A stretch of 64,000 bases of DNA from Akkermansia muciniphila (GTDB taxonomy: Bacteria > Bacteroidota > Bacteroidia > Bacteroidales > Bacteroidaceae): assembly GCA_963621665.1 (NCBI GenBank), contig CAVFEZ010000005.1:6005-70004 (forward strand), read 5' to 3'. Within the stretch, counting starts at the first letter, position 1, and every line of letters begins with the position of its first letter. The position numbers and the translations under genes were made by a program. Shown piece after piece: positions 41,182 to 58,403 of the stretch. The notes under the pieces are model-generated. The model made no database searches and was not told where the DNA came from. It worked only from the letters and a program-made list of their open reading frames with translations.

Positions 41182-43764
41182 TCAGATTTCCTCGATGACC
41201 GCGGTCTTGAGCCAGCCCTCGCGTCCGTCGGCCAAGCGCACAGCCCGCCAGCCCTTCATGGTATTGTCGGTGATGTCGACACGCGTTCCCTCGTGTATGA
41301 TAAAGGCATCGTTGGCACTGTCGGCGGGCGTCTTCTTGACAGTGACCACCGGTGCGATGACCACCGCCCCATTGCGCTGCTCGAAGGCCCGCTTCTGCTG
41401 CCAGGCAAACACATTGCCAAGCAGGAAGACCACAGCGAGTACGATACTGCCGTAGAAACCGACCTCGCGTACAAGGATACGCTTGCCAAACAGGTACAGC
41501 AACAGAAGTACGCACGCCAAAGTCAGCGCCACAACCGAGAGCGTCGCCCAGGCGTCAACACTCATCGCATTGACAAGCGAGCGGTACCAAGTGACGAAGA
41601 ACATCTCGTTTTGCGGGGTGATCTTGTCGATGGTGCGCGAGGACACAAACTGGAGATTGAACCAGATGTCCTTGTCGCCGGGCGACAGGAGGTGGGCACG
41701 CTCATAGGCAAGGACGGCCTGGGGCAGATTGCCTACCCGATACTGGGCGTTGCCGAGATTGTAGTATACATCGGCACTGACCCCTTGGCGCAACAGTTGG
41801 GTGTAGACCGTCACCGCCTGCTGGTATTCGCCACGCACGTAGGCAGAGTCGCCCTCAGCCTTGGTCACGGCAGATGCGGGAAGTGCCGTCATGAGCATAA
41901 ACAACAGGAGGAGGGACAGCGCACCGGACTTCTTCCGTGAGCGGGCCGCGCGTATGGCGTCTTCGATATCCATAATGGCATTCATGGCCGAGGTGTAGGT
42001 CTTGTTCATGTTTCCTGCCGCATCGCCGGGCGCATACCTTTCGTATTCGCACTCGTCGAGGGCACTGATAAATGTATCGATGGTAGTCTGGCTCACCTGA
42101 TGGCGCGACAGGGCTTCGGCGACATTGTCGCGCGAGAGTTGCTCGACAGGCATATTGAGTTTGTTGCTGACGTATCCCCACAATGCCCGCAGCACCTCGT
42201 CGTAGAACTCGCCCTGCCGTCCGGACTCCATCAGCCGGTGGGCAGCCTTGAGCCGCTTTGTGGCCACCTTGTTGGCACGGCGGCCCTTCATCTTGACGAT
42301 ATCGGCACTGTCGGCGGCATGCTTTCTGAAGACAACCATCAGGATGACAAATACGGCCAAGAGGGAGATGAGCGTCAGGATATAGCGCGTCGAGCCGAAG
42401 TAGAAGTCACCGACATCGTGCAGACGTGACGTTCCTTCATGCAACGGCAATATGTCATTGCGCTGGGCCTGCGAATAGTCGATGACGGCGGAACTCTTGC
42501 CGCTGCCCTTTTCTACAGTGACGGAGATGGGCTGTGTCTGTACCGTCTTGTAGGAAGATGTGGATGTGTCGTAATAGGTCAGTTTGACCGACGGTATAGT
42601 GTAGGTACCCTGGTTGCGCGGCACGACAAGATAGTCGTACACCATGTTGCCCTCGATGCCGTTGGTCGTCAGCCGTGTCTTGTCGGTCACCTTGGGGTCG
42701 TACTTGTCGAAATCCTTGGGGAACTCGACGACGGGCTGCTTGATCAGTTTGAGGTTGCCGACACCGCTCACCACGACACGCAAGGTCAACGGCTCGCCGG
42801 CCTTGGCCGTCTTCGACAAGAGCTGGGCCGTGATGCCGAACCGCCCTACTCCACCGGAGAAACCGGCGGGCTTGGCCGGCAGCGGATCGACCTGTATGGT
42901 CAGTCCGGGAGCGACAATGTCGCGATTGACCTCCACATATCCGGAACCGCCATTGAAGAAGGCCTCGAAGGGATCGACGTTTCTGTTCTGCTGCACAACA
43001 ACGCCCTTGAAGGTGATGCCGGGTATCTTCATCTGTCCCGTCATTTGGGGATACATGACATACTGGCTCCACGTGACACAACGGTAATTGCGGCCGTTGA
43101 CATTCTCTATGTGGAAACTCTTCTGCTGCGGCAGGGGTATCTCCTGGGTATGGAACCCTGCCAGATCGGGCATCTTGCCATTGAGCTGGGTCAGATTGAC
43201 CAACGTGTAGACCTTGTAGGTAAGAAGGATGGGTTCCTGCTCATGGACACGCTTCTTGTTGGCGCTCACCTTCACAAAAAGGTCGCTGCCGGAGATGCGG
43301 CTTCCCGCAGCGCGCATACCGTCGTCCTCACCGTCGTCCTCGTGCATACGCGGCGCACCGTTGCCTCTGCCGGCATTGCCGGAGACAGTGATGCGCACAG
43401 GGCGCGAGGTACAGGCCTTGCCATTGACGACGGCCCTTGCGGCCGGTATAGTGAACGTTCCGTTCTTCTCGGCATAGAGGGTATAGGTATAGGTGACCGA
43501 CGACGAACTGCTGGTATGGCCGTTGACAACCTGAAAACTGGACTGCTGCGACGTGTAGGGCCCGGCGATGACCTCGAGCCCTGACGGTATGTTGCCAGAC
43601 CGGAAGTCTGACACATCGGTTGTATTGATGGTATAGGCTATGCGGAAGTTTTCTCCGACAGCCACATGAGAAGGGGCTGAGACAACAATCTGCTGGGCCT
43701 GGGCGAGTAGCGCAAGGCAACTCAGGAAGCAAGCCACAAGCATGCGTTTCATAATTATCATCAT
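41182..43764 (-). CDS. batD: BatD-BatE fusion protein
   Basis: About 610-aa BatD (signal peptide, Ig-like repeats, TM, CEYERYAP) read through in frame into BatE (TPR YYNLGNAQYR, TMs, SH3-like IHEGTRV...GREGWL). Confidence 0.85.
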   Translation of the reverse strand: MMIIMKRMLVACFLSCLALLAQAQQIVVSAPSHVAVGENFRIAYTINTTDVSDFRSGNIPSGLEVIAGPYTSQQSSFQVVNGHTSSSSSVTYTYTLYAEKNGTFTIPAARAVVNGKACTSRPVRITVSGNAGRGNGAPRMHEDDGEDDGMRAAGSRISGSDLFVKVSANKKRVHEQEPILLTYKVYTLVNLTQLNGKMPDLAGFHTQEIPLPQQKSFHIENVNGRNYRCVTWSQYVMYPQMTGQMKIPGITFKGVVVQQNRNVDPFEAFFNGGSGYVEVNRDIVAPGLTIQVDPLPAKPAGFSGGVGRFGITAQLLSKTAKAGEPLTLRVVVSGVGNLKLIKQPVVEFPKDFDKYDPKVTDKTRLTTNGIEGNMVYDYLVVPRNQGTYTIPSVKLTYYDTSTSSYKTVQTQPISVTVEKGSGKSSAVIDYSQAQRNDILPLHEGTSRLHDVGDFYFGSTRYILTLISLLAVFVILMVVFRKHAADSADIVKMKGRRANKVATKRLKAAHRLMESGRQGEFYDEVLRALWGYVSNKLNMPVEQLSRDNVAEALSRHQVSQTTIDTFISALDECEYERYAPGDAAGNMNKTYTSAMNAIMDIEDAIRAARSRKKSGALSLLLLFMLMTALPASAVTKAEGDSAYVRGEYQQAVTVYTQLLRQGVSADVYYNLGNAQYRVGNLPQAVLAYERAHLLSPGDKDIWFNLQFVSSRTIDKITPQNEMFFVTWYRSLVNAMSVDAWATLSVVALTLACVLLLLYLFGKRILVREVGFYGSIVLAVVFLLGNVFAWQQKRAFEQRNGAVVIAPVVTVKKTPADSANDAFIIHEGTRVDITDNTMKGWRAVRLADGREGWLKTAVIEEI

Positions 43765-43797
43765 GGATTGTAATTAATGCATTATATTAGGACCGGT

Positions 43798-44481
43798 CTA
43801 CCAATTCTTGTCAAGCTTTCTCGGACGGGAGCGGTGCATGGCGTCCTTGACACGCTGCTGCGTGTTTTTCTCGTCCTGCATGGCCGCATTGAGCAGCTGC
43901 TCGGCGTTGTCTTTGCTCATACGCTCTTTGTCTTGCTGCTGCTTGTTCTGCTGCTGCTTGTTCTTGTCCTGGTTCTGCTTGTCCTTATTCTGTTTGTCCT
44001 TGTCTTTGTTCTGCTTGTTCTTGTTCTGGTTGTTGTTCTGGTTGTTGCGCGGGTCGTTTTTCTGCAAGCGCTTGCAAAGGGCAAGGTTATAGCGGGTCTC
44101 GTTGTCAGACGGATTGTTGCGCAGGCTCTCCTTATAGGCATTGATGGCCTCGGCATACATCTTTTTCGTCTGACAGATGACACCGATATTATGATAAGAC
44201 TTGGCCTTGCGCAACTTGCTGGTCTCCAACTGTCCGGCACGCTGGAACTGTTCGACGGCGGCAGAATCCTTGTTCTGCATCATCAGGGCACAGCCGAGAT
44301 TGTATATAGCCTGGGCGTTGCCCGAGTTTTCGGAGACGGCCTTGCGGTATTCCACCTCGGCCTTGGCAAAGTTCTGCTGCCGGAAAAACTTGTTTCCCGA
44401 GCGTATGTATTGTCTGTCGGCCTGTGCTGAAACCGCTACGGCAAGCAGGGTCAACAAATATAGAAGGATGGTTCTTTTCAT
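43798..44481 (-). CDS. batC: BatC TPR protein
   Basis: Signal peptide, TPRs (YNLG, YHNIG, TRYNLA), Q/N/K/D low-complexity linker, terminal KNW. Confidence 0.88.
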   Translation of the reverse strand: MKRTILLYLLTLLAVAVSAQADRQYIRSGNKFFRQQNFAKAEVEYRKAVSENSGNAQAIYNLGCALMMQNKDSAAVEQFQRAGQLETSKLRKAKSYHNIGVICQTKKMYAEAINAYKESLRNNPSDNETRYNLALCKRLQKNDPRNNQNNNQNKNKQNKDKDKQNKDKQNQDKNKQQQNKQQQDKERMSKDNAEQLLNAAMQDEKNTQQRVKDAMHRSRPRKLDKNW

Positions 44482-45506
44482 TTTTCTCCCTTTCTGAACA
44501 AACGGATATTTCTGAAAGCCGGATTCTTGGCCTCGAGAAGGCAAGCCTCAACGACAAGCAATACCAACGCCAGGATGGCAAATGCCTGAAACTGCTCGGC
44601 ATACTCGCTATAGACCACACTTTGGGTCTCGCCCTTCTGCAGTTTTGCCAACTCGCTATTGAGCCGCTCCTGTGCATCATTGGTATTGTCGACATGGATG
44701 TACGTGCCGTTGCCCGCCTGCGCCACTTCGCGGCACATCTGCTCGTTGAGGGCAGACATGACGGTCTGGCCGGCTGCATCACGCATATACTCGCCCTTGC
44801 CCAAGGGTATGGGGGCACCGGAGGTGCTTCCTACGCCAAGGATAAACACATTGATGCCCTTCTTCTTGGCGGCCTTGGCTGCCTCCAACGCACCGCCCTC
44901 ATGGTCTTCGCCATCGGTGATGAGAATGACGGCACGCCCGATCTTCTCCTGTTTCGAAAAACTGCTGCAAGCCAAATCGATGGCACGGGCTATATCGGTA
45001 CCCTGCGTGGAGATAAGAGACGGATTGGCACTCTGGAGAAACATCTTGGCGGAAACGTAGTCGCTCGTGATGGGCAACTGCACAAAGGCATCGCCTGCAA
45101 ACACAATCAAACCAATCTTGTCGTTGGTGAACTTGTCGACGAGGTTCTCCACCAGCATCTTGCTCTTGTCGAGTCGGGAAGGGACGACATCCTGTGCCAA
45201 CATGGAGTTGCTGATATCCAGCGCGATGATGGTCTCTATGCCATTTCGGTTGTCACGGGATATCTTGGAGCCCATCTGCGGACGGGCCAGCACAACAACC
45301 AGAAGGGCATAGGCGGCCGTCACGAGCCAAAACTTCACGGTAGGACGGTAGCGGGAGACCTGCGGCATGAGCTGCCGCAACAAAGCGGGGTCGCCAAAGG
45401 CGCGAAGGCGCTTGCGACGCACACGGAAAGTGATGATGCGGACCAGCATCAGCACCGGGACGGCCAAAAGCAGCCAGAGATATATAGGGTCTTCGAATCT
45501 GAACAT
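44478..45506 (-). CDS. batB: BatB vWA-domain protein
   Basis: LARPQ, MIDAS DISNSM, ITDGE. Confidence 0.9.
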   Translation of the reverse strand: MFRFEDPIYLWLLLAVPVLMLVRIITFRVRRKRLRAFGDPALLRQLMPQVSRYRPTVKFWLVTAAYALLVVVLARPQMGSKISRDNRNGIETIIALDISNSMLAQDVVPSRLDKSKMLVENLVDKFTNDKIGLIVFAGDAFVQLPITSDYVSAKMFLQSANPSLISTQGTDIARAIDLACSSFSKQEKIGRAVILITDGEDHEGGALEAAKAAKKKGINVFILGVGSTSGAPIPLGKGEYMRDAAGQTVMSALNEQMCREVAQAGNGTYIHVDNTNDAQERLNSELAKLQKGETQSVVYSEYAEQFQAFAILALVLLVVEACLLEAKNPAFRNIRLFRKGEK

Positions 45507-45513
45507 GACAATG

Positions 45514-46512
45514 CTAAGGTATACGGCGCAAAACCGTTGTTCTCAATATAATCTCGAAAAGCAACAGGATGACAGCAGCAAGAGCAAAGGGCTGATAGGC
45601 TTCATACCGCTTGGAGAAGCGCTTGACATCCATCTTGGTCTTCTCGAGTTTGTCTATATCTTTGTATATCTGGGCCAACTCCCTGTTGTTGGTGGCACGG
45701 TAAGAACTGGCACCGGTCACAGAGGAGATGTCGGAAAGGGTCTTGGTATCGAGCTCGACAGGCATATTCACATACTGCACACCGCCTGCTACCGGCACAG
45801 GATAGGGGGCGACCTTATTGGTACCTACCGCTATCGTGTAGACTCGTATGCCGAAACTCTGCGCTATCTGCGCGCTGGTCATGGGCGAGATGTCGCCCAT
45901 ATTGTTGCTTCCGTCTGTCAGCAGAATGACAATCTTACTCTTTGCCTTCGAATCTTTCAGGCGCGACACAGCATTGGCCACACCCATACCGATAGCCGTA
46001 CCGTCATGGATGATGTCCTGTGCAGCGATATCGGTGCGGACGCCCTGCAGCAAATTGAGCAACGAGGCATGGTCGGTGGTCATCGGACACTGCATGAAGG
46101 CTTCTCCGGCGAAAATCGTAAGGCCGATATTGTCATTTGGACGGCCGGAGATGAAGTCGGCGGCCACCGCTTTAGCAGCCTCAAGCCGGTTGGGGCGGAG
46201 ATCTTCGGCCAGCATGGATGTAGAAACGTCCATGACCAACATGATGTCGATACCCTCTACCGACTTGTTGTCCCATGAATTGTGGGTTTGAGGACGTGCC
46301 AGTACACATACGACCAGCACATAGACGATACACCGCAAGACCATCGGCAGATGCACAATGCGCATACGCCAACTCTTGGGTACATACCGATAGGCATCGG
46401 TACTGCCCATCCTCATTGTCGGTTCGCTGCTCTTGCGATAAAGCAAGTACCACAATATATAGGGTACAAGCAGAAGGAGCAACACGAAATATCCTTTACT
46501 TGCAAATTCCAT
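45514..46512 (-). CDS. batA: BatA vWA-domain protein
   Basis: LARPQ, DVSTSMLAED..PNRLEAAK, GTAIGMG, LLTDG.NN. Confidence 0.92.
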   Translation of the reverse strand: MEFASKGYFVLLLLLVPYILWYLLYRKSSEPTMRMGSTDAYRYVPKSWRMRIVHLPMVLRCIVYVLVVCVLARPQTHNSWDNKSVEGIDIMLVMDVSTSMLAEDLRPNRLEAAKAVAADFISGRPNDNIGLTIFAGEAFMQCPMTTDHASLLNLLQGVRTDIAAQDIIHDGTAIGMGVANAVSRLKDSKAKSKIVILLTDGSNNMGDISPMTSAQIAQSFGIRVYTIAVGTNKVAPYPVPVAGGVQYVNMPVELDTKTLSDISSVTGASSYRATNNRELAQIYKDIDKLEKTKMDVKRFSKRYEAYQPFALAAVILLLFEIILRTTVLRRIP

Positions 46513-46521
46513 TTCCTAATC

Positions 46522-47610
46522 TTATTCGAGCAACAGATACAAACGATAGGCCGCAAGCGATGCCAGCACGGCTATTGCAATGACGACAACCGTGATGGCC
46601 GTCTTGATGACGGTGCGGTTGCTTTGGGTGCGCTTGTCGTCCGCGCTGAGTTCGGGAACAATGCGCTCCGTGGTCGGCTGGCCTTCGATCTTGGTCTGGT
46701 CTATGAAATTGATGGCGTTGACGAGATTGAGGTCATTCTCGTTGAGAAGCGTAGAATACTTGGCAAACTTCACCAAATCGGCGGTGGTGAACAGTTCCTT
46801 CAGTTCGTCAAGCATCTTCCGGTCGCCCTGCTCCTGCAGGCGGTAGAGTATCTCCGAACTGGTCATTTCCTTGGCACTGAATCCGAAACGTTCCTCGATA
46901 TACTGACGCAAGGCATCAGTCAGTCGGGTATAATACTCCTTTTGGCTTTCCGGAGTGGCAAGATGCTCACTCTTCAGTTTGTCTATCGTATTGAGCGCCT
47001 TTTGGTGGGCAGGCACACGCTTGACGATTCGGATATGTGTGATAATGGGCTTGTTCTGCCGAAGTCTGACCACAAGGTAAAGACATACGACCGAAAGGAC
47101 CAGGACAAAAATGCACATCCACAATACAGGCGACCATTCCGACCAAAAGAAAGGATTGTCCTGCACATCCTTTGGCGGGAAGAACTTGTCGGCATGCAAG
47201 GTATCGACATCTACCGATATCACTTTGAGGGCCAACGTATTGGATGTATAGGGTTTGCCGTCTACCTTGACCTTCACACCGGGGATAGCGTACAGATGTT
47301 CGTCAAAACTGGTCAGCGTATACGAACGCGACACTTTCGTCTGCCCGTCGACATCGGTCTTCTCTTCTGAAGAACAGTCGAGCACCTCAACACCCGGAAC
47401 GATCAACTGACTGCGCTTGTAGGTCGGAAACGTCACACGGGCACCGTTACGCGCCGTCACCTCGACAGTCATCCGCACCTGCTCGCCGATCAGTATCTGC
47501 ACTGAGTCTATCTTCGCCTCGACATGTACCTGCGCCTGCAAGACGACAGCCACAAGCGAGAACAGCAGAAGGGCAATATGTCTTTTCAATAATATCTTAC
47601 TCATTTTCAT
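46522..47610 (-). CDS. Conserved Bat-operon membrane protein
   Basis: Signal peptide, Ig-like domain, TM, YYTRLTDALRQYIE..FG..A.EMTS, ADLVKFAK; sits between DUF58 and batA. Confidence 0.8.
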   Translation of the reverse strand: MKMSKILLKRHIALLLFSLVAVVLQAQVHVEAKIDSVQILIGEQVRMTVEVTARNGARVTFPTYKRSQLIVPGVEVLDCSSEEKTDVDGQTKVSRSYTLTSFDEHLYAIPGVKVKVDGKPYTSNTLALKVISVDVDTLHADKFFPPKDVQDNPFFWSEWSPVLWMCIFVLVLSVVCLYLVVRLRQNKPIITHIRIVKRVPAHQKALNTIDKLKSEHLATPESQKEYYTRLTDALRQYIEERFGFSAKEMTSSEILYRLQEQGDRKMLDELKELFTTADLVKFAKYSTLLNENDLNLVNAINFIDQTKIEGQPTTERIVPELSADDKRTQSNRTVIKTAITVVVIAIAVLASLAAYRLYLLLE

Positions 47611-47621
47611 TCATCATACTA

Positions 47622-48494
47622 TCAAACGCCCCGGGAAGAGAACAGCGCCATCATAGAGCGTACATAATCACCGTTGGTGGCTACCGACACCCAGTCGACA
47701 TTGCTCTTGGCGAAAGTCTGCCGCAGACGTTCCTCACGCATCTGCCAATAGCGGGAGTGGGCCTGCCGTACCTTCTTGGAACTGGTATCGATGAGCATCT
47801 CGTGCCCTGTCTCTGCATCGAGTACCTTCATCAGACCGATGTCGGGCAAGGTCTTGGCACGCTGGTCGTAGACCTGAATTGCCATCACATCATGCTTGCT
47901 GTTGGCAATCTGGAAGGGCTTTTCCATATCCTTGCCGTCATAGAAGTCGCTCAGCACGAAAGCGGTACAACGCCGCTTGACAACACGTGTAAGGTATTCC
48001 ACCGCCATACCCACGTCGGTACGGAGACTCTGCGGCTTGAAATCGATCATTTCGCGGATAATGTACAGAATGTGTTTCCGGCCCTTCTTGGGGGGAATGT
48101 ACTTTTCGATACGGTCAGAGAAGAAGATGACACCTATCTTGTCGTTGTTCTGTATGGCGCTGAACGCTATAGTGGCGGCAATTTCAGCCACCATGTCACG
48201 CTTCATCTGCACAGCAGTACCGAAATCCAGCGACCCCGAGACATCCACAAGCAGCATGACAGTCAGTTCACGCTCTTCCTCATATACCTTAATATAAGGC
48301 CGGCGGAAACGTGCGGTCACATTCCAGTCGATATCGCGGATGTCATCACCGAACTGATACTCGCGCACCTCGGAGAAAGCCATACCACGCCCCTTGAAGG
48401 CCGAATGGTATTGGCCGGCAAAGATGTTTTGGCTCAATCCGCGCGTCTTAATCTCTATCTTGCGGACTTTCTTTAATATATCTGATGTTTCCAC
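47622..48494 (-). CDS. DUF58 protein
   Basis: FKGRGMAFSEVREYQFGDDIRDIDWNVTAR, DVSGS; GTG start. Confidence 0.92.
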   Translation of the reverse strand: METSDILKKVRKIEIKTRGLSQNIFAGQYHSAFKGRGMAFSEVREYQFGDDIRDIDWNVTARFRRPYIKVYEEERELTVMLLVDVSGSLDFGTAVQMKRDMVAEIAATIAFSAIQNNDKIGVIFFSDRIEKYIPPKKGRKHILYIIREMIDFKPQSLRTDVGMAVEYLTRVVKRRCTAFVLSDFYDGKDMEKPFQIANSKHDVMAIQVYDQRAKTLPDIGLMKVLDAETGHEMLIDTSSKKVRQAHSRYWQMREERLRQTFAKSNVDWVSVATNGDYVRSMMALFSSRGV

Positions 48495-48562
48495 GAATTA
48501 CTTGTTTTTTATGTAACACTATTCGTTGTGTACAGCAAAAGCGGCACACGGAGGTGGCTACA

Positions 48563-49558
48563 TCAGGGTACCTCAACCTTGTTGATTATCTTGGAAACAA
48601 TTTCCTCGCTGGTCACATTGCTGGCTTCTGCCTCATAGGAAAGACCTATACGGTGGCGCATCACGTCATGGGCAACCGCACGCACATCTTCAGGCACTAC
48701 ATAGCCTCTGCGCTTGATGAAAGCGTAGGCACGGGCTGCCTTTGCCAGATTGATGCTTGCACGGGGAGAACCGCCGTAGGTGATCATGTCCTTGAGTTCC
48801 GGCAAACCGTAGCGCTCGGGGTAGCGGGAAGCGAAGACGATATCGGCAATATACTGTTCGATCTTCTCATCGATATATACTTCGCGTACCACCTTGCGGG
48901 CGTTGAGTATTTCTTCTGCCGTAGTCACGGGAGTAACTGCAGGAAGACTGCCGGCGAGATTTTCGCGGATAATCAGTTTTTCCTCTTCAAGCGACGGATA
49001 ACCGATGATGACCTTCAGCATAAAACGGTCGACCTGTGCCTCGGGCAACTGGTAGGTACCCTCCTGCTCGATGGGGTTCTGGGTAGCCATCACAAGGAAT
49101 GGATTGGGAAGGGCAAATGTCTTCTCCCCGATGGTAACCTGATGCTCCTGCATGGCCTCAAGCAGAGCGCTCTGCACCTTTGCCGGGGCACGGTTTATCT
49201 CATCGGCCAAAACGAAATTAGCAAATACGGGACCTTTCTTCACATGGAAGCCTTCATCCTTCTGTGAATAGACGAGCGTACCGATGACATCGGCCGGAAG
49301 GAGATCGGGAGTAAACTGTATTCTGCTAAAATCGGCATCAATAAGTTGTGACAAAGTTTTGATGGCCAATGTCTTGGCCAGACCGGGGACACCTTCGAGC
49401 AAAATATGTCCGTCACTCAGAAGGGAAATGAGCAAAGAGTCAACCAAGTGACGCTGCCCCACAATCACGCGGTTCATTCCCGTCACGAGATTGGTGATAA
49501 AACCGCTTTGCTGTTCTATCCGAATGTTCAGTTCCCGGATATCAATAGATTCTGCCAT
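48563..49558 (-). CDS. MoxR family AAA+ ATPase
   Basis: EGVPGLAKT, RIQFTPDLLPAD, DEINRAPAKVQSALLEAM, TQNPIEQEGTY, GSPRAS. Confidence 0.95.
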   Translation of the reverse strand: MAESIDIRELNIRIEQQSGFITNLVTGMNRVIVGQRHLVDSLLISLLSDGHILLEGVPGLAKTLAIKTLSQLIDADFSRIQFTPDLLPADVIGTLVYSQKDEGFHVKKGPVFANFVLADEINRAPAKVQSALLEAMQEHQVTIGEKTFALPNPFLVMATQNPIEQEGTYQLPEAQVDRFMLKVIIGYPSLEEEKLIIRENLAGSLPAVTPVTTAEEILNARKVVREVYIDEKIEQYIADIVFASRYPERYGLPELKDMITYGGSPRASINLAKAARAYAFIKRRGYVVPEDVRAVAHDVMRHRIGLSYEAEASNVTSEEIVSKIINKVEVP

Positions 49559-49750: not shown

Positions 49751-50347
49751 TCAGCCACGCAAAGCACTGAGTTTCAATCCAAATTCGGTTGTCAGTTCTT
49801 CATATATACGCTGTACGGGAAGTCCCATCACATTGAAATAACTGCCTTTCAGCGCCGTGACACCGACATACCCGATCCACTCCTGTATGCCGTAGGCACC
49901 GGCCTTGTCGAATGGATGATAATGATTGATATAGTAATCGATTTCATCATCGGCAAGCATTTTGAAGGTCACTTCGGAAACGACGGAGAAGACCCGTTGT
50001 TTGTCGGGAGTCGTCAGACAAACGCCTGTCACCACCTCATGCGACCGCCCGCTGATGAGCCGCAACATCCGTCGGGCATCAGCGGCATCTGCCGGTTTGC
50101 CCAAGATTTGATTGTCGACGATGACCACCGTATCGGCCGTCACCAGGAGTTCGTCGCACGTGATATCGTAGGCCGCAGCTTTCTCTCGGGCAATATACGC
50201 CGGGACATCGGCGGCTGGCAAATTCTCCGGATAGGACTCGCTGACTCCCTTCATCACCCGCACTTCGAAATCGATGCCGAGACCAGCCATCAACTCGCGG
50301 CGACGGGGGGAATTGCTGGCCAACACGTACTTATACTGTTTTGTCAT
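49751..50347 (-). CDS. maf: Maf/YhdE nucleotide pyrophosphatase
   Basis: LASNSPRRRELM, ADTVV, GKP, DKAGAYGIQ, NVMGLP. Confidence 0.93.
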   Translation of the reverse strand: MTKQYKYVLASNSPRRRELMAGLGIDFEVRVMKGVSESYPENLPAADVPAYIAREKAAAYDITCDELLVTADTVVIVDNQILGKPADAADARRMLRLISGRSHEVVTGVCLTTPDKQRVFSVVSEVTFKMLADDEIDYYINHYHPFDKAGAYGIQEWIGYVGVTALKGSYFNVMGLPVQRIYEELTTEFGLKLSALRG

Positions 50348-50355
50348 TTTTGCAA

Positions 50356-50456
50356 CAAAGGTAAACAGATTTGCCCGAACCACGCCGCACAAGTCTCACA
50401 TTTTAATAAAATAACGCACGGAAGTCCCCGACTTTCACGTATTTTTCTTATTTTTG
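50356..50456. promoter_or_regulatory. Divergent promoter pair (maf on -, tubulin/actin operon on +)
   Basis: TACCTTTG on - at 50356-50363; TATTTTTG on + at 50449-50456. Confidence 0.6.
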
Positions 50457-50490
50457 CAACCATATCAAGAGACAACACGTCACACTAAAT

Positions 50491-52002
50491 ATGAAGAAAA
50501 CCACATACGTCACCATACTTTTCCTACTATCCGTCTTTATAGCAGGCATAACGAGCGGATGCCAAGACAGCGGAAAGAAAGCATTCAACCGCCTGTTGCT
50601 GCAATTGGCCGAAGAAGACCACACCATAGACCACAATGACTGGATGGCCATCGAAAAATGGATGCACGAGAATGCCGCAGCACTCAGCGAATTGCGTGAC
50701 GGCGACCATCCAGACGTCAAGAAGACCAAGGAGTACATCGCAGATTTCTTCAAAAACCGCCGACCCTCCGCAGACATCACCTTTGTCGGTATCGGGAACA
50801 AGCCCTTTTTTGCCGTTCACCTGTACTTGGAGCGTTCCGGCAGCATGGCACCCTACGACAGCCGCGAAGGAGACGGACTCTTCAAGTCAGCCATCGTGCA
50901 GTTGCTGAACAGTCTACCCGGTGACAACAACGACAACCGCATCTATATCGTCAACAGCACTGTAAACGCCTATCCCGAAGGATTCGACAAATTTCTTTCG
51001 GATACCGACATCTTTGAAAGCACCAAGGGCATAGGCGATGCCAGTTATACGGATTTCAGTTCGATCTTCAGCGACCTGCTGAACAATACCGGAGACAATG
51101 ATCTCAGCATCCTTGTCACCGACATGATCTACTCCACCAAAAACATGAGTGGAGTAAGTCCGCAAAAGATATTCAACGAGGCTGAAGGAATGACCAACGC
51201 TGTCTTCAAGAACATCGGAACACAAAAATCGATGCTGGTTGTAAAATTGCACAGTGGATATCACGGCCCCTACTACAGCTACGATGCGCCATCCACAGGC
51301 AAACGCTATGACGGGCAACGTCCCTTCTATATGGTCATCGTGACCTCGAATGCGAACATGGCCCGACTGACAACGGACCACCACTATCAGGCATTTGCCC
51401 GACTGGCACAGATCAAGGGATACGACGACGAGTACCTTTTCAGCGCAGCACCACCATACGCCCCCTACCACTCGCTGTTGCTGAACCACCGCGACATACG
51501 CGGACGGTTCAAACCGGAAAGAGGATCAGGTACGCAGGTTACATCCATCAAAGACGTGGAAACTGACCCTGAGACAAAAGACTTCAGGCTAATACTGGCC
51601 GTCGATCTCAGCCACATGTTCATCGCGGACAGTTATCTGACCGACAAGAAGAACTACGAGGTGGCATCGGGCAGCGGTATGAAAATCGTTTCCATACGCC
51701 CCATCAGGAGCGGTGACCTCACAGAGACAGAAAAACGGTACGCCGGCACGGCCACCCATCTGTTCACACTCAGTGCGGGGAGAACCATCCCCAAAGACGA
51801 CATCCACATCCGGCTGAAGAACGTTTTGCCGGCATGGATTGCCAACACGTCTACTGACGATGACCGAGACACGCACACGGGGAATTTCAGCGAAACGACA
51901 TTCGGTCTGAAATATCTTTTAGGCGGCATATACCAGTCGTACAAGAAAAGTGCGGGCGGCGTACCCGACTACTTTGACATCGAACTCAAACTGAGCGAAT
52001 AA
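50491..52002 (+). CDS. Lipoprotein with vWA/MIDAS-like domain
   Basis: Signal with lipobox ITSG-C24; VHLYLERSGSM, YTDF and SILVTDM resemble the MIDAS DxSxS...T...D triad. Confidence 0.7.
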   Translation: MKKTTYVTILFLLSVFIAGITSGCQDSGKKAFNRLLLQLAEEDHTIDHNDWMAIEKWMHENAAALSELRDGDHPDVKKTKEYIADFFKNRRPSADITFVGIGNKPFFAVHLYLERSGSMAPYDSREGDGLFKSAIVQLLNSLPGDNNDNRIYIVNSTVNAYPEGFDKFLSDTDIFESTKGIGDASYTDFSSIFSDLLNNTGDNDLSILVTDMIYSTKNMSGVSPQKIFNEAEGMTNAVFKNIGTQKSMLVVKLHSGYHGPYYSYDAPSTGKRYDGQRPFYMVIVTSNANMARLTTDHHYQAFARLAQIKGYDDEYLFSAAPPYAPYHSLLLNHRDIRGRFKPERGSGTQVTSIKDVETDPETKDFRLILAVDLSHMFIADSYLTDKKNYEVASGSGMKIVSIRPIRSGDLTETEKRYAGTATHLFTLSAGRTIPKDDIHIRLKNVLPAWIANTSTDDDRDTHTGNFSETTFGLKYLLGGIYQSYKKSAGGVPDYFDIELKLSE

Positions 52003-52061
52003 CTGCAAGACGGACATCGTCCGCCACAATATTCGCACTAGATTAAGGGCTATAAAAAATT

Positions 52062-52505
52062 ATGAAGAATATCTTACTATTGGCAGGAGGACTACTGCTG
52101 ACACTCCTTTTCCTCATCATGTCTGCGACAGCATTTGAGGGGATGTACTATGAACGGGAATTTTCCAACGAGATGTACAACCAAGGGCTCTACCTTCCCG
52201 CTTCAATCCTTGTCACCGGTATGGCATGGGGGGCTGCAGCGGCGTACTATTACCTCATCAATTCGGTCAATTTCTCACGATGGTTCCACTGGCTCATCAT
52301 GCTTGTTGCCACCGCAGCACTGTCAACAATATGCGTACACACCTATACCGCCAGCGCACTTGCTGACGAGGGACTCAGTTTCGGCCATCAACTGACTACA
52401 TTCTCAGGAGTTTGTGCCGTTACGAATACAATCTTTTTCATCATTGCCTCCTTTTCGCTAAGGTGGTGGAGTTCCAACTGCCGCCACACCCCCATTCCCG
52501 AATAG
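52062..52505 (+). CDS. Small integral membrane protein (4 predicted TM helices)
   Basis: Four hydrophobic segments; C-terminal WWSSNCRHTP. Confidence 0.8.
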   Translation: MKNILLLAGGLLLTLLFLIMSATAFEGMYYEREFSNEMYNQGLYLPASILVTGMAWGAAAAYYYLINSVNFSRWFHWLIMLVATAALSTICVHTYTASALADEGLSFGHQLTTFSGVCAVTNTIFFIIASFSLRWWSSNCRHTPIPE

Positions 52506-52580
52506 CAGAATTCTGCACCATCTTGGCTCAGCAGAAATTCCTTTTCAAAAGAACAAAAGCAAACATAACACCATACGACA

Positions 52581-54125
52581 GTGAGACTTTTCTTATTCTT
52601 GGTCGGCGGGACCGGTTCCCGCGTATTGCGTCCGCTCATCATGCAGTTTGCAGCGGGCATACACCCGACCGACGAGGCCGGCAACGCCATTCCCCTGGAA
52701 GTAGTACCCGTCATCATCGACCCCCACAAAGCCAATGAAGACCTGAAGCGTACGGACAACCTCCTACGTTGGTACAAACAGATACACCGCGCTCTGTACG
52801 GACAACGCAGCGATGCCACACGCGGCTTTTTCTCAGTCAAGATATCGACACTCAGCGATATATGTCCGCAAGGGAATGAACTGGCAGACACGTTTCAGAT
52901 GAAACTTGGTACGCTGGAATCGACAAAATTCCGCGACTTCATCAACTACAACACGATGGACACCGCCAACCAGGCCCTTTGCTCCATGATGTTTTCCGAC
53001 TACCAACTTGAGACCAAGATGGACATCGGATTTGTCGGAAGTCCCAATATCGGAAGCATTGCGCTCAACGAGCTGAAAGACAGTGAAGAGTTCAAACAAT
53101 TCTCCAACGTATTTCAAAAAGAAGACCGTGTGTTCATCGTCAGTTCGATATTCGGCGGAACAGGAGCGGCCGGATACCCTGTCATCGTGAACAACATCCG
53201 CAATGCGGACGAAAACACATCCATCAACAACCGAGGAGACCTGCGCAACGCAAAAATCGGGGCACTCACCGTATTGCCCTACTTCAACGTACAACAAGAC
53301 GAGAACAGTCCGATTTCCCGAGCCGACTTTATCTCCAAGACGAAATCTGCCCTGTATTACTATCACGACAATCTGACCGGACTACGGTATGGCGGAAAGG
53401 ATACGGGAACGTCAAAAATCAACGCATGCTACTATCTCGGTGACGAGGTACCGTCGACCCCATATTTCAACGACCCAGGAGGGAACGGCCAGCGCAACGA
53501 TGCCCACCTTGTGGAATTTGTCGGAGCCTTGTCCATACTCGACTTTCTCCAGATTTCAGACGACCAGATCGTTACGGCAGACGGCAAAGCCATTCGCCCC
53601 ATTTACAAAGAATACGGGCTGGCCAACGACACGAGAAACGTCACGCTCAAAGACTTGGGCCTGCAGACACGGATTGCCATCAATGAGCAGATGGCCAAAT
53701 TCCATCTCGCATATATGTATATCACATATCGGCTGCGCGAAGATATCGGGCACGGCTACACGCTCGACAAACCAGCCATAACGAAAGGATTTCTGTCGAC
53801 ATCGTTCTTTACCACGCTGACAGCCAACTTTTTCGTAGCCTACGCACAATGGCTCAAGGAACTGCAAAACAACCAAAGAAGTTTCGCTCCCTTCAACCTC
53901 GATACGCAGGAGATAAGAAATTGCCTGAACCACATCGAAGCGAGAAGCGGATTTCTGAAGACTCCACCCAACTACAAGCACATACTCTCTGCACTCAACG
54001 CGGCCTCACAAAAAGCAGTCAAAACCAATGCCTATGGCGAGACAGAGACCGCCGGCAAACTCCTTGGACTACTCGACATGGTCTTGGGGAAACTGCTCGA
54101 CGAAAAATACGATTCCGTAGTCTGA
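52581..54125 (+). CDS. Divergent tubulin/FtsZ-superfamily GTPase (Tubulin_2-like)
   Basis: LVGGTGSRV, IIDP, GFVGSPNIG, SSIFGGTGAAG (tubulin signature variant), TVLPYF in canonical order; GTG start. Confidence 0.85.
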   Translation: MRLFLFLVGGTGSRVLRPLIMQFAAGIHPTDEAGNAIPLEVVPVIIDPHKANEDLKRTDNLLRWYKQIHRALYGQRSDATRGFFSVKISTLSDICPQGNELADTFQMKLGTLESTKFRDFINYNTMDTANQALCSMMFSDYQLETKMDIGFVGSPNIGSIALNELKDSEEFKQFSNVFQKEDRVFIVSSIFGGTGAAGYPVIVNNIRNADENTSINNRGDLRNAKIGALTVLPYFNVQQDENSPISRADFISKTKSALYYYHDNLTGLRYGGKDTGTSKINACYYLGDEVPSTPYFNDPGGNGQRNDAHLVEFVGALSILDFLQISDDQIVTADGKAIRPIYKEYGLANDTRNVTLKDLGLQTRIAINEQMAKFHLAYMYITYRLREDIGHGYTLDKPAITKGFLSTSFFTTLTANFFVAYAQWLKELQNNQRSFAPFNLDTQEIRNCLNHIEARSGFLKTPPNYKHILSALNAASQKAVKTNAYGETETAGKLLGLLDMVLGKLLDEKYDSVV

Positions 54126-54148
54126 ACCACTCCACAAGAAACGACAAC

Positions 54149-57100
54149 ATGAGCAAAATACTGGCATACAACAACAAGACGACCGGCGAGAGTTGGATAC
54201 CGCTAAGCGGCCAATACTCTGCCGACGAAATAGAAATGATAGCCGATCCGAACGGCGGGCTGTCGCAAACGCCACGGACTGCCATTCCAAGTCCATTTGC
54301 CCAAATGGACCTGGTCAAGAATGCCTTTCACCGGCTATCAACCCACACTGACCTCCACGGGGAGACAATGGACGAGAAACTCGTATCAGACGCTTTGGAC
54401 ATTGCCCAACTGTTTTTCTGCTACAAAGAACTGACAGAAAGTCTGCACATCATCACATGGAACAGAGCAACAGAGATTGCCAAATTGCTGGCCAGTCCGC
54501 AACACAGAATTGTCGGAGAGACAATCGAGATGTTCCTCAAGCAAGACCAGGAAGCCTTCAACTTTGCAAAGATGGACAAGCTCCACTTTCTTGTCTACGG
54601 CAATGCTGTCATCGGAAGCACGTCACCAGTCACCCTCTTCATGGCCAGTCCCAACGCCGCACCAAACATATACGACATTCCATTGGAGCAGAACGTGAAG
54701 ATATTCTCCCGATGGCGGCCGCTCTATCAACGCGAAAAGCGCTTTGTTGTCTACTGCTATGCGCTCTTCACGGCCTACCCGGAACTCAAGCAACTGTGCA
54801 GCGAGGTCAATGCCTACCTGATCAGGAACTTCCGCCTTTTGCCACAAGACACACAGTCGGACATCACCAAAAACATCGGCAACCCGGAAGCACTCGACAT
54901 GGACAAGACAGACAAGGCGCTCAACTACCTGAATGCCAATTTCGACAAGATGGAAGACGGAGTACAGGCCTTAGGCGTTCCGTTCTACTGCGCACGCCAG
55001 CAAGACGTAGAAGAGGATATTGCAGCAAGCGATTTCAGAATACAAAGCACAAAGGCGACAATGGGCGAAAAGATGCCGCTCATTCTTCAGAACCACCTGA
55101 ATGCGCCGGGCAACGACCCATTCAGATACATTGTCGACAACTGGGACGACTCTATCATCATCACTCCGGAGGACTATGCCCTTTCTCCAGAGAAAAGATT
55201 GCTTCCGGGGACCACCCACCAGTATCCGTGGCTCACAGACGACGATTTTCTTGAACCGGCACTCATCAAACTCGACTATGCCATCAACCGCGACTGCTTC
55301 TTCGACGGCAACATCACACAGGAGACAAGAGAGACCGATGACTACGATTTTCTATTGCCCATCAAACCGCTTTTCTTCAAATACTTCAATGTCAGCGACC
55401 TTTGGGGGACAATAGGTGGCCGTCCGCGTTTCGAACTGCGGCACTCCAAAACCGGACAGACGGAAACCGTCAAGGCCATACTGCGTATACCCGTACAGAA
55501 GTCAGGACACTACGTCACACTCTCGCGTACATACATCCAGTCGACAGACTGCAATTTGGAATACGACAACGGACGGAATTGCGGAAAATTTATTACCCTA
55601 CCATTTGCTATCGCCATCTTCCCGTTTGTCAAGACCACACAACCGGGACAATACCACATACAACTCGTTGACCGGGCACTCGGACAAATGGAAAACTACG
55701 CCATCGGCCTGACGTTCCATGACAGTACCCATGACGAACAGATAGAATGCACAGCGAGAAAGCGGAGCATGAAAGCCGTCAAAAGGGTCGGCTCGCTATA
55801 CTACAGACTCGACGGTTCATTCGACCATATCAAGGCTTCACTTACCGACGACCTCAACAGGGTTGTGGCAGAAGGCATCATCTGCCCCCGATGGGCCAAT
55901 CACGTCGAAGGCCACGAAGCCTTCACCTTCGCTGTAGATTTCGGTACGACCAACACCCATGTGGAATGTATGCGCGAGAACCAAATGCCCGCACCGCTCA
56001 AAGTGGCCTCCGCCACGCAGGAGCGTATGGTTGCCACGCTATACAACGGAAGCAGCATTCTATACGATGTCATACTTCATCAGGAATTTCTGCCACAAGT
56101 CATCGGAGGCGAGTACGGATTTCCACAACGTACTGTACTTTCTGAAAGCGAGCACCTCAATGCAGCGCAGGCCGACGAGATTATCGCTCTGTGCGACGCC
56201 AACATCCCCTTCATCTACGAGAAGGAATCCATCGGTTACGGAAACCGCATCATCGCCGACCTGAAATGGTCTACCGACCTGTCCACCAACAAGCGCATCC
56301 ACACCTACCTGACCGAGTTGGCCCAACTCATGAGAACAAAGGTTCTTCTTGAGAACGGTGACCTAGCAAAGACACGCGTGGTCTGGTTCTACCCCCTCAG
56401 CATGAAAGTGGGAAGAATCCGGAAAATGGAAGAAATGTGGAAAAAAACCTTCGAAAAGGTATTCGGTACTACCGCAGACGAAAAGAACCTTCTGCAAATG
56501 CCCGAATCGGTCGCTCCCTACTACTATTACAAGTGCTCCAGCCAGTTCCGGGGTGCCGCCGCCAACGTAGCGAGCATAGACATAGGCGGCGGATCAAGTG
56601 ACGTGGCCGTATTCGAGTCCAACACCGGAGTCCCCACCCTACTCACATCATTCAGATTTGCAGCCAATACGCTCTTCGGCGACGGATTCTCGGAATTGCC
56701 ACATGGCGACACCAATCCCCTGACCCGGAAATACGTCGGCTTCTTCAGACAAATATTCGATCGCGACGATGACAAGTACGGCGAACTGAACGGCATCATG
56801 GACGACATCGTAGACAAGCGGAAGTCAGAAGACATCAATGCGTTTCTCTTCTCCATCGAAAACAACAAAGCCACCAAAGGCAACGACCTGTTCTCTTTCA
56901 ACAAGAGACTCAATGAGGACGAGACACGCAAGATCATCTTCATCTACTTCTACGCCGCTATCATCTACTATGTAGCCCGGATGATGGAACACCGGCAACT
57001 GGATATGCCCCAAAGCGTCATGTTCAGCGGAACAGGTTCCAAGACACTTGATATCGTTGGAACCAAGACTGATTTGGAACTACTCACCCGGTACATCTTC

Positions 57101-57622
57101 GAAAAGGTATACGCAAAAACCTACGGAGAGAAACCGTTCTCCATCGTCACAGAAAGGACCGAGCCCAAACACATCACCTGCAGGGGGGCACTCCTGCAGG
57201 TAAGAGACGAGACCGGCTGCAAAAACGTGCAGGAACTTAACCGCCAAATGTACGAATTTGACAACCCGCTGAAGTACAACTACTCCATGCTCGACAAAGA
57301 AACGCTCACCTACGATGACATAAGCAATTCCGACATACAGGCATCCATTGTCAACGAAGTACGCAAGTACAACACGATGTTCCTGCAACTCTGCGAAGAT
57401 GCCCATGTATGCGACCGTTTCCTTGTCAACAGAAAAGCATTCGAACTGTTCAAAACGCTACTGAACAAGGATTTGGAACACCATCTCATCACAGGTTGGA
57501 ATTTCTACAACAAAAACCAAAGCGAGAAGAACGGAGCCGATCCCATAGAAGATGCCGTATTCTTCTACCCTATCATAGGAAGCATACGCGACAACATGAT
57601 AGAAAACTTAAAAGAGGAATAA
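54149..57622 (+). CDS. Large protein with C-terminal actin/Hsp70-superfamily ATPase domain
   Basis: AVDFGTTNT, MPESVAP, SIDIGGGSSD, MFSGTGSK, EPKHITCRGAL match phosphate1, connect1, phosphate2, adenosine and connect2; about 590-aa unknown N-terminal region. Confidence 0.85.
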   Translation: MSKILAYNNKTTGESWIPLSGQYSADEIEMIADPNGGLSQTPRTAIPSPFAQMDLVKNAFHRLSTHTDLHGETMDEKLVSDALDIAQLFFCYKELTESLHIITWNRATEIAKLLASPQHRIVGETIEMFLKQDQEAFNFAKMDKLHFLVYGNAVIGSTSPVTLFMASPNAAPNIYDIPLEQNVKIFSRWRPLYQREKRFVVYCYALFTAYPELKQLCSEVNAYLIRNFRLLPQDTQSDITKNIGNPEALDMDKTDKALNYLNANFDKMEDGVQALGVPFYCARQQDVEEDIAASDFRIQSTKATMGEKMPLILQNHLNAPGNDPFRYIVDNWDDSIIITPEDYALSPEKRLLPGTTHQYPWLTDDDFLEPALIKLDYAINRDCFFDGNITQETRETDDYDFLLPIKPLFFKYFNVSDLWGTIGGRPRFELRHSKTGQTETVKAILRIPVQKSGHYVTLSRTYIQSTDCNLEYDNGRNCGKFITLPFAIAIFPFVKTTQPGQYHIQLVDRALGQMENYAIGLTFHDSTHDEQIECTARKRSMKAVKRVGSLYYRLDGSFDHIKASLTDDLNRVVAEGIICPRWANHVEGHEAFTFAVDFGTTNTHVECMRENQMPAPLKVASATQERMVATLYNGSSILYDVILHQEFLPQVIGGEYGFPQRTVLSESEHLNAAQADEIIALCDANIPFIYEKESIGYGNRIIADLKWSTDLSTNKRIHTYLTELAQLMRTKVLLENGDLAKTRVVWFYPLSMKVGRIRKMEEMWKKTFEKVFGTTADEKNLLQMPESVAPYYYYKCSSQFRGAAANVASIDIGGGSSDVAVFESNTGVPTLLTSFRFAANTLFGDGFSELPHGDTNPLTRKYVGFFRQIFDRDDDKYGELNGIMDDIVDKRKSEDINAFLFSIENNKATKGNDLFSFNKRLNEDETRKIIFIYFYAAIIYYVARMMEHRQLDMPQSVMFSGTGSKTLDIVGTKTDLELLTRYIFEKVYAKTYGEKPFSIVTERTEPKHITCRGALLQVRDETGCKNVQELNRQMYEFDNPLKYNYSMLDKETLTYDDISNSDIQASIVNEVRKYNTMFLQLCEDAHVCDRFLVNRKAFELFKTLLNKDLEHHLITGWNFYNKNQSEKNGADPIEDAVFFYPIIGSIRDNMIENLKEE

Positions 57623-57700
57623 AGGTGGGAACGATGCGTGGAATTTATAGAACACGCCTAAAAAGCAATGGTTTAGTATTCCCTAATACTTTACAAAAAG

Positions 57701-57742
57701 AGCAAACCCCGGAAACAGAAAATTCTGTTTCCGGGGTTTGCT
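57701..57742. terminator. Bidirectional terminator hairpin
   Basis: 20-bp perfect inverted repeat AGCAAACCCCGGAAACAGAA/TTCTGTTTCCGGGGTTTGCT between convergent genes. Confidence 0.85.
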
Positions 57743-57751
57743 ATACACTCA

Positions 57752-58138
57752 TCAGAACGGCAGATCGTCACTGCTATTCTCCTGTACTACAGGTTGAGGT
57801 GCAGCAGGAGCCGGTTGCGGAGCCACAATGGGCTGCGGAGCCACTACGGAAGCGCCGCCTATTGCTGCAGGGTCAACAAGACGCACATCAAAAGCACGCA
57901 CACTGTTGAACCAGCGGCCGTTGTACTCATGGGCATCGATGTCAAATGAGACCATCACCTCCTGGCCAACCTGGATATTGAAACGCTGCAGGCGATCGGC
58001 ACCAAATACGCTGAACACCATTTTGCGGGGATAGGTATCATGGGTCTCAATAACAAAATCCTGGGCAGTCCATTCACCTCTTGCTGACGTGCCACTTCTT
58101 GCAGGAAGGGCGGCTATCACTTTTCCTTGTAATTCCAT
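57752..58138 (-). CDS. DUF3127 protein (OB-fold/SSB-like, acidic tail)
   Basis: MELQGKVI...W..Q.FVIET..YP, FDIDAHEYNGRWFN; terminal DDLPF like the SSB tail. Confidence 0.85.
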   Translation of the reverse strand: MELQGKVIAALPARSGTSARGEWTAQDFVIETHDTYPRKMVFSVFGADRLQRFNIQVGQEVMVSFDIDAHEYNGRWFNSVRAFDVRLVDPAAIGGASVVAPQPIVAPQPAPAAPQPVVQENSSDDLPF

Positions 58139-58361
58139 TGTAAAAATCTGTTGGTATTGTTTTTCTTATCTTTTCCAAAAGTCTGGCCGGGAACAGCCTG
58201 ACAGGTGCCATAACATTCCTTTCAAATTCCGACCGTAAGCATGCACAAGGCACAGAAAACAGAATATTCCAGCGTTCCCATTGGACTTGCGAAATTAATA
58301 ATTTTTGCTTTAACAAGAGAAAGTTTCACACAAGTTTTTTGTTCCACACAAGGCTTTTTTG

Positions 58362-58369
58362 TATTTTTG
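58362..58369 (+). promoter_or_regulatory. -7 promoter element for dnaN
   Basis: TATTTTTG with TTTG about 20 nt upstream. Confidence 0.6.
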
Positions 58370-58403
58370 TACCTGAATAGGAAAACAACAAAATATTACA
58401 TAC

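Follow-up and report, generated by a model that had tools for sequence, protein, structure and literature searches.

A distinct actin-fold ATPase and its predicted tubulin-like partner in a four-gene cassette of Prevotella-type bacteria

Why should a bacterial gene for a divergent tubulin-like GTPase be followed directly by a gene for a large actin-fold protein, and what might the two products do together? The question is raised by a 64,000-nucleotide stretch (hereafter the window) of a genome placed in the Bacteroidaceae (GenBank assembly GCA_963621665.1, contig CAVFEZ010000005.1, positions 6,005 to 70,004), in which a Prevotella-type gene at 54149..57622 (+) encodes 1157 amino acids (aa) followed by a stop codon and stands fourth in a same-strand cassette. 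The initial annotation of this DNA had described the product as a candidate actin-like family with an N-terminal half that could not be assigned, possibly acting on the adjacent tubulin-like protein. Here the protein was characterized by translation, comparison with relatives, structure modelling and fold searches. The actin-like and tubulin-like proteins very probably form a heterocomplex, and the pair may, on a more tentative reading, belong to a surveillance or defence system of the cell envelope.

The actin-fold protein and its domains

The annotated frame is borne out by its translation and by the conservation of Met1 (54149), which is kept in at least 90% of 150 aligned relatives, mostly at 30-40% identity; an alternative upstream ATG (53849) reported by the open reading frame (ORF) caller falls within the tubulin gene. 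Among 6736 candidates of similar length, 2637 relatives were found at E <=0.001, and 1312 representatives of 50%-identity clusters match the protein. The named relatives are hypothetical proteins of Prevotella and Hoylesella, and 60-68% identity is retained across the Prevotella-named records. No family match was found in Pfam, NCBIfam or PADLOC, a single-sequence search of the PDB returned three matches (E 0.8-1), all due to chance, and one relative matches PF14450 below the cut-off over 36 residues. The family profile matched MreB, Hsc70, FtsA and BeeR in the PDB, the MreB match (E 2e-4) being confined to the phosphate-2 motif, and reached the presumed MreB- and DnaK-sized proteins of the same genome at E 4e-4 and 1e-3 only. 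The gene is real and conserved, and its product is a member of none of the families tested, in agreement with the initial proposal of a distinct family that is neither DnaK, MreB nor FtsA.

Residues 586-1035 (55904..57253, +) constitute an actin/Hsp70-fold ATPase, recognized by fold search, Foldseek and invariant residues. All five motifs of the ASKHA (acetate and sugar kinase/Hsc70/actin) superfamily (phosphate 1, connect 1, phosphate 2, adenosine and connect 2) are present, with DFGTTNT at 55937, PESVA at 56501, DIGGGSSD at 56579, SGTGSK at 57026 and EPKHITCRG at 57161; the initial annotation had listed the same five and placed DIGGGSSD one nucleotide too early, at 56578. D597, G599, E786, D811, G813, G814, D818, G961, K1007 and G1013 are invariant in 150/150 aligned relatives, and because catalytic-type residues are invariant at such low identity, the actin-type motifs are not chance resemblances. 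The invariant residues of this putative ATPase include the catalytic-type Asp and Glu.

In the fold search with residues 589-1035, the top matches were ParM (7x54) and MreB (4cze), both at Z 11.9, BeeR (8r2n, 11.6) and an Arp2/3 chain (11.5), with 273-329 residues aligned at a root-mean-square deviation (rmsd) of 3.8-4.8, while Arps, PilM, Hsp70-type domains and FtsA matched at Z 10-11.5. Identity to the actin superfamily is 8-15% and the Z scores are largely tied. The two lobes of the ASKHA fold are present according to the fold search, and Foldseek assigned the ATPase part to the actin fold (E 8e-9). Sugar kinases, which the initial annotation had considered together with Ppx as another identity, reached Z 10.0 at best, below the actin/ParM/MreB group (11.9), and with fewer residues aligned. 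The model has a long insertion after phosphate 1 and FtsA aligns over fewer residues, both of which bear on whether subdomain 1C stands in the place of 1B, as in FtsA.

The full-length model, built from 64 sequences, has a mean predicted local distance difference test score (pLDDT) of 87.8, and residues 1-45 alone are poorly defined (pLDDT 40-56 for residues 1-50 in the monomer model). Behind the ATPase, residues 1036-1157 (57254..57619, +) form an all-helical domain with a conserved (E)ETLFFYP-type ending, according to the DSSP assignment of the model and the consensus. Because the residues that follow the ATPase are only helical (1021-1157 in the model), there is no Hsp70-type beta-sandwich substrate-binding domain, as had been noticed before. 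In front of the ATPase, the motif-like blocks reported initially are present and conserved (AIPSPFAQ at 54281, IGSTSPVTLF at 54611, LPGT..QYPWLT at 55202 and LLPIKPLFFKYF at 55352), and P47, F50, D84 and R195 are invariant in the 150 relatives.

As the initial annotation had recommended, the two halves were also searched separately; the ATPase half gave the actin fold, and the N-terminal half, of which residues 41-585 folded alone at pLDDT 93.5, ends in an immunoglobulin (Ig)-like beta-sandwich. This sandwich (residues 484-585; 55598..55903, +) was recognized by fold search (best Z 8.6, rmsd 2.9, 93 residues aligned, followed by filamin and Ig repeats at Z 6-7.4); it is a common fold and shows no function. 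Residues 170-483 (54656..55597, +) are a confidently folded alpha/beta region (pLDDT 93.5 in the same model) with no structural match. Residues 41-585 gave only Ig-like matches in the PDB and among viral models, and residues 41-483 matched no solved fold, which is not proof of a new fold, since the Ig domain fills the match list and this region was barely tested. The beta-rich segment that the initial annotation could not assign is this sandwich, and the last 100 residues are the only part of the N-terminal half with a common fold.

Several known families were rejected as identities. DnaK/Hsp70 was rejected on the helical region after the ATPase and the lack of any HSP70 Pfam or DnaK NCBIfam match, MreB/Mbl (a single domain of ~340 aa) on the length of 1157 aa and the lack of a family match, and FtsA on the lack of a family match for the window protein and a context that is not the dcw cluster. 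With MreB, ParM and BeeR (4cze, 7x54 and 8r2n) the protein shares the actin fold, the five motifs and the tied top structural matches; it differs from them in its low identity (12-15%), in 585 extra residues in front and ~120 behind, and from MreB and ParM in the absence of RodZ/MreC or ParR/parC context. SrfB (PF07520) is also a protein of ~1000 aa in which a long N-terminal part precedes an actin/Hsp70-fold ATPase, and it also occurs in Bacteroidota (2/201 genomes). The comparison with SrfB, which had been suggested initially, led to the rejection of this identity: the protein scores below 27.1 bits against the 992-position model, and the profile comparison aligns just 89 columns around phosphate-2. 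A link of the N-terminal half to SrfB in the Atlas (score 0.80, SrfB in 19% of members) is a weak lead.

Two broken relatives were also observed, each interrupted close to where the first N-terminal domain ends. At L076:4606-8043, an in-frame stop follows after ~267 residues of the actin-like protein, and at L061:12257-13126, ~285 actin-like residues are kept beside an intact tubulin gene, with no lipoprotein detected. These breaks may reflect a domain boundary, decay or sequence error.

The tubulin-like partner and the predicted complex

The predicted partner is the product of gene 3 of the cassette (52581..54125, +; GTG start), a divergent tubulin/FtsZ-like GTPase of 514 aa recognized by its motifs and by sub-threshold Pfam matches. 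Both Tubulin and Tubulin_2 stay below the cut-off (Tubulin_2 at 18.3 bits vs 27), and in Atlas neighbours of a 71%-identical homologue, Tubulin_2 is found in 17-25% of members. The motifs GGTGxR, GFxGxPNxG, FGGTGAAG and LPYF are conserved. The GTP loops are kept, and the region after the core helix, where T7 would come, has no conserved residues; the loop names used here (T3, T4, T5, T6, T7) are assumed from the motif order of FtsZ. Unfused relatives of this protein are 450-547 aa long.

Three lines of evidence tie the two proteins together. The first is gene order: among 35 non-redundant loci with 3.6 kb or more of upstream sequence, the tubulin gene lies directly upstream of the actin-like gene in 34. 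The 35 loci were obtained from 51 loci with an actin-family match by removing six near-duplicates and the loci with short flanks, and they are mutually related, so that the counts made on them are not independent trials.

The second is gene fusion. In one metagenome locus, tubulin and actin-like protein share a single 1563-aa frame; 30 further long tubulin homologues were found among 7994 candidates, and 31/31 long homologues examined also bear the actin-like part, one of them (1197 aa) cut short. The fusion proteins have pairwise identities of 21-93% (median 31%), and their named members come from Paludibacteraceae and Thermoflexibacteraceae. Fusions occupy seven places on a 112-row tree of the actin-like part; on a 32-row tree, whose rows were chosen after the first tree was seen, they need six changes, at least five of them forced. 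A single fused clade was rejected by the approximately unbiased (AU) test under LG+G4 without mixture (p 3e-42, and 1e-46 with the three multi-member groups only). Stop-codon errors could account for singleton fusions but not for the three groups, which comprise 18, 4 and 4 diverged sequences. The unfused majority suggests repeated fusion rather than repeated fission, on a tree that is unrooted.

The third is co-folding. The tubulin with residues 1-485 of the actin-like protein gave interface scores (ipSAE) of 0.85, 0.83 and 0.85, against 0.00 for the best of three controls; at least 94% of the contacts agree between runs, and the pLDDT of the partner is 84 or higher. The mark applied is reached by 116/157 solved pairs and 2/215 mismatched pairs. 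No solved relative of the N-terminal module was found, and a pass due to memorized structures is therefore unlikely. On the actin-like side, contacts are made by residues 1-58 and 102-169, among them the conserved stretch that lacks order in the monomer, and on the tubulin side they include residues 153-167, 193-208, 232-234, 248-272, 283-289 and 340-363. Two points temper this result: the calibration holds only roughly for user-supplied alignments whose first 38 rows were locus-paired, and conservation at the predicted interface, which in each chain is higher than outside it (0.58 vs 0.43 and 0.57 vs 0.41), is uncontrolled for active-site and buried residues. Taken with gene order and repeated fusion, the co-fold pass supports the link to the adjacent tubulin proposed in the initial annotation and makes a heterocomplex very probable. 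From the interface and its conservation, residues 1-169 (54149..54655, +), which carry a T(S/A)IPSPFA(R/Q) motif, are predicted to be the tubulin-binding module that grips the partner.

The arrangement resembles the FtsZ-FtsA pair of the divisome in that tubulin and actin homologues are encoded side by side and bind directly (here by prediction) near the membrane. FtsA is ~420 aa long and binds the FtsZ tail via its ATPase domain, whereas in the present protein the tubulin core is the predicted target of a separate N-terminal module; the alignment with FtsA covers 254-260 residues, against 304-329 for BeeR, Arps and BiP. Unlike FtsZ-FtsA, the cassette is accessory and not universal. Besides FtsZ-FtsA, we know of no bacterial actin homologue and tubulin homologue that bind each other directly.

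For the tubulin, the closest description is that of the FtsZl1 group (Tubulin_2, PF13809), whose operons with von Willebrand factor A (vWA) and OmpA genes were predicted by Makarova and Koonin in 2010 (PMC2875224). According to the available text of that paper, FtsZl1 is likewise a highly diverged tubulin that has retained its GTP loops and has an unrecognizable T7 region, and its patchy operons have a vWA-type gene upstream and membrane and OmpA/MotB-like genes nearby. FtsZl1 differs in its length of ~900-1400 aa and its long coiled coil with a helical C-terminal domain (PMC2875224), and its operons differ in that the cassette core has no P-loop GTPase or kinase. The same available text names no actin-fold partner for FtsZl1; a table row lists a 1626-aa 'DnaK (HSP70)' near a Magnetospirillum FtsZl1, a protein not compared here with the actin-like one (PMC2875224). 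In the accessible part of PMC9871819, Tubulin_2 proteins serve only as an outgroup, and no functional study of the Tubulin_2/FtsZl1 group was found in the open-access literature.

The cassette, its accessory genes and its distribution

The actin-like gene is the last of a same-strand run of lipoprotein, membrane protein, tubulin and actin genes, which is followed by a hairpin. Gene 1 (50491..52002, +) encodes a predicted lipoprotein of 503 aa with a vWA/MIDAS-like (metal-ion-dependent adhesion site) motif (ERSGSM ... ILVTD), recognized by its hydrophobic residues 6-24 and by conservation; (E/D)xSGS and a downstream Asp are conserved in its family, with weak Pfam support for vWA, and Cys24, S116 and D211 are invariant in 31/31 aligned relatives. 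Gene 2 (52062..52505, +) encodes a membrane protein of 147 aa with three predicted helices, found by hydropathy scan and, in related loci, by hidden Markov model (HMM). By HMM, the lipoprotein is present in 31/35 loci and the membrane protein in 28/35, most misses being divergent genes of the right size. The hairpin is a perfect 20-nt inverted repeat (57701..57742, by sequence scan), terminator-like by consensus match only, between the cassette and the convergent gene, and a promoter scan gave chance-level results only. Downstream genes vary among related loci; a 92%-identical relative has a 185-aa gene directly after the actin-like gene, which the window copy lacks. No intact form smaller than this four-gene copy was seen, which hence defines the core. 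Elsewhere in the window, at 41182-49558 (-), lies a run of MoxR, vWA and tetratricopeptide repeat genes, divergent from the cassette and probably unrelated, which we take to resemble the Bacteroidota Bat operon, with an 860-aa ORF that is presumably two Bat genes fused.

MotA-like and MotB-like (ZorA/ZorB-like) genes were found downstream in 18/36 loci. The MotA-like proteins are 485-594 aa long and the MotB-like ones have a transmembrane Asp; PADLOC ZorB models match 7/7 MotB-like proteins tested, and ZorA models 5/11 MotA-like ones. These loci thereby resemble Zorya as described in the available texts of PMC11946911 and PMC11890865, in which a ZorA5B2 motor is combined with ZorC/D, ZorE or ZorF/G and recruits soluble effectors (PMC11946911). 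Unlike Zorya, the soluble parts here are a tubulin and an actin-fold protein, and the core also occurs without the motor, the window being an example. PADLOC recognized no ZorC-G among the four window genes and the scanned relatives, a scan that did not cover every downstream gene, and tubulin goes unmentioned in the available text of the Zorya modularity paper. Matches to the ZorB models elsewhere in this genome were rejected, as they cover the OmpA-like part only and lie in unrelated contexts.

Other arrangements were observed as well. In a divergent branch (L045:5892-16595, L046 and L062), an actin-like protein of 1134-1302 aa is followed by an extra gene of 427 or 861 aa, and gene pairs that we take to be TerD-like stand in place of the ZorA/ZorB-like pair. 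L045 contains, in addition, an OmpA-domain gene and a kinase on the opposite strand. At L068:15993-17399, in near-identical IMG/VR contigs, two tandem ZorB-like genes stand behind one ZorA-like gene, and an upstream 408-aa gene is presumably integrase-like. L074:9956-17410 carries the actin-like gene and ZorA/ZorB-like genes without the three upstream core genes, and L078, with the same N-terminus as L074's, has the full core.

The DO-GTPase/GAP1 systems, for which an anti-invader role was proposed (Kaur et al. 2020, PMC7159879), are similar in their patchy, membrane-proximal neighbourhoods, which can hold tubulin, Hsp70-fold and vWA genes; in the available text, tubulin and Hsp70 are non-overlapping themes of these systems, found in Firmicutes and Actinobacteria. 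The systems are defined by DO-GTPase and GAP1; the four genes and the neighbours scanned gave no Pfam match of this kind, no dedicated profile search having been made.

The cassette is accessory, being present in 18/151 family genomes including this one (17/150 others) and in 1/6 others of the genus. Within the phylum it was found in 6 close and 2 distant genomes of 401; the profile search matched 349/401, and besides these eight, the listed matches are short phosphate-2 matches in ORFs of 321-517 aa, which are presumably FtsA-type and were left uncounted. In five cassette-less genomes of the genus, the flanking genes are not adjacent, and no insertion site is demonstrable. A plasmid search with the tubulin gave five cyanobacterial records; on the three examined, the next gene encodes a 1093-1118-aa homologue with actin motifs (E 1e-27 to 2e-39 against the family profile), with an SIPSPW motif in two, and the four-gene order is the same on two of the three, the lipoprotein gene being inverted on the third. 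Eight IMG/VR contigs, four of them near-identical, carry actin-family loci; since no match was found among 50,697 GenBank phage records, these loci may represent integrated elements or flanking host DNA. The contigs that bear most of the copies look chromosomal.

Some single loci deserve mention. On a Picosynechococcus plasmid (L092:1-14881), the cassette adjoins an alternate F1F0 ATPase operon. Records titled Lachnospiraceae and Flexilinea (L001 and L003) contain this locus (90-92% identity) together with the same flanking genes of Prevotella type, and these titles look inconsistent with the content. A non-Bacteroidota-looking metagenome locus (L085:8599-10880) has the cassette with ZorA/ZorB-like genes ~4.5 kb downstream, and the Atlas lists an Acidobacteriota cluster for the N-terminal half of the actin-like protein.

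Possible functions of the pair

As a system, the cassette matches no described kind, although its tubulin is related to the predicted FtsZl1 group and a Zorya-like motor accompanies some copies. No description of it was found in the open-access literature, subscription papers not being covered. Our preferred but tentative reading is that the actin-tubulin pair acts as a switch in the cytoplasm for a surveillance or defence system anchored in the envelope. The fold, the motifs, the gene order, the fusions, the patchiness and the optional motor genes form the basis of this reading. The actin-fold ATPase would be half of a one-to-one complex with the neighbouring GTPase. Residues 1-169 are predicted to clamp the tubulin, their first 45 residues ordering on binding, and residues 170-585 to hold the ATPase away from this grip. 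The clamp would touch tubulin residues beside the nucleotide site (T3, T4, T5 and T6). Given this position and a tubulin without a conserved T7-type loop, the actin partner would cap or time the GTPase, and FtsZ-like treadmilling would not be expected. ATP turnover may then drive assembly or release. In the most conjectural steps, the lipoprotein might sense envelope disturbance, the small membrane protein might relay the signal and dock the complex, and a Zorya-like stator, where present, might add an ion-driven input.

Several observations weigh against this reading. The link of the cytoplasmic pair to the membrane proteins is its weakest step and is conjectural. The vWA identity of the lipoprotein is weak, Pfam VWA_CoxE and VWA_2 matching 1/31 members each, and the protein has no PDB match. 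The four cassette genes are unmatched in PADLOC and contain no recognizable nuclease, NADase or other effector domain. The ZorA/ZorB-like pair is lacking in 18/36 loci; it is absent from the window and was not found in this 93.7%-complete assembly. The window locus lies amid housekeeping genes with genome-typical GC, and no mobile or defence genes adjoin it. A bolder form of the proposal, an undescribed class of machine in which actin ATPase and tubulin GTPase are an obligate heterodimer joined via a new fold, repeatedly fused, and co-polymerize or switch at the inner membrane as an envelope-sensing immune effector pluggable into a Zorya-like motor, is possible but doubtful.

The alternative that survives best, which we consider somewhat unlikely, is that the same heterocomplex works at the envelope without a defensive role, as another pair of the FtsZ/FtsA kind with which some lineages would shape membranes, vesicles or cell contacts. 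The window copy amid housekeeping genes, in a locus common to close relatives, and the identity retained across Prevotella-named records agree with such a role. MotA/MotB-type stators also power transport and motility. In addition, membrane remodelling was proposed for related tubulin-vWA-OmpA operons in the available text of Makarova and Koonin (PMC2875224). However, the cassette is patchy even inside the genus, its downstream genes are variable, copies such as L061 and L076 are degenerate, and others lie on plasmids and in the eight IMG/VR contigs.

The actin-like protein might instead be a dedicated Hsp70-like remodeller, the tubulin being the working filament, which the ATPase would fold, load or strip, and the N-terminal module standing in for the substrate domain of Hsp70. 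This is improbable in our view: Hsp70-type ATPase domains do come within ~1 Z unit of the best matches and the module is predicted to bind tubulin, but permanent fusion in several lineages gives a fixed one-to-one stoichiometry unlike that of a catalytic chaperone, and the neighbourhood tables revealed no DnaJ- or GrpE-like gene, no profile search for one having been made. A partition or positioning system with ParM-like and TubZ-like filaments, moving the DNA of a mobile element, is highly improbable. ParM ties as the best structural match and plasmid copies exist, but the scan of 50200-58400 found no centromere-like repeat array, the core has no small DNA-binding adaptor gene, its conserved partners are envelope proteins (the lipoprotein and the membrane protein), and most copies look chromosomal; ParM/Alp and TubZ partition was rejected on these grounds. 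A metabolic ASKHA enzyme, sugar kinase or Ppx-like, merely beside the tubulin is hardly credible. Sugar kinases share the fold (Z 9-10) and one exopolyphosphatase appears at Foldseek rank 27 (rmsd 22.9), but the kinases rank below the actin group, the PDB matches of the profile are MreB, Hsc70, FtsA and BeeR, and gene order and fusions tie the protein to the tubulin.

If the predicted interface is correct, the cassette would represent a second actin-tubulin pairing, made through a module without a solved relative, present in two phyla or more and made permanent by repeated fusion. The cassette opens the Tubulin_2/FtsZl1 group, which was predicted in 2010, to concrete tests, and the natural fusions are ready single-chain targets for cryo-electron microscopy. 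Comparison of four-gene copies, such as that of the window, with motor-bearing ones can test whether stators of the Zorya type serve unrelated effectors as modular inputs.

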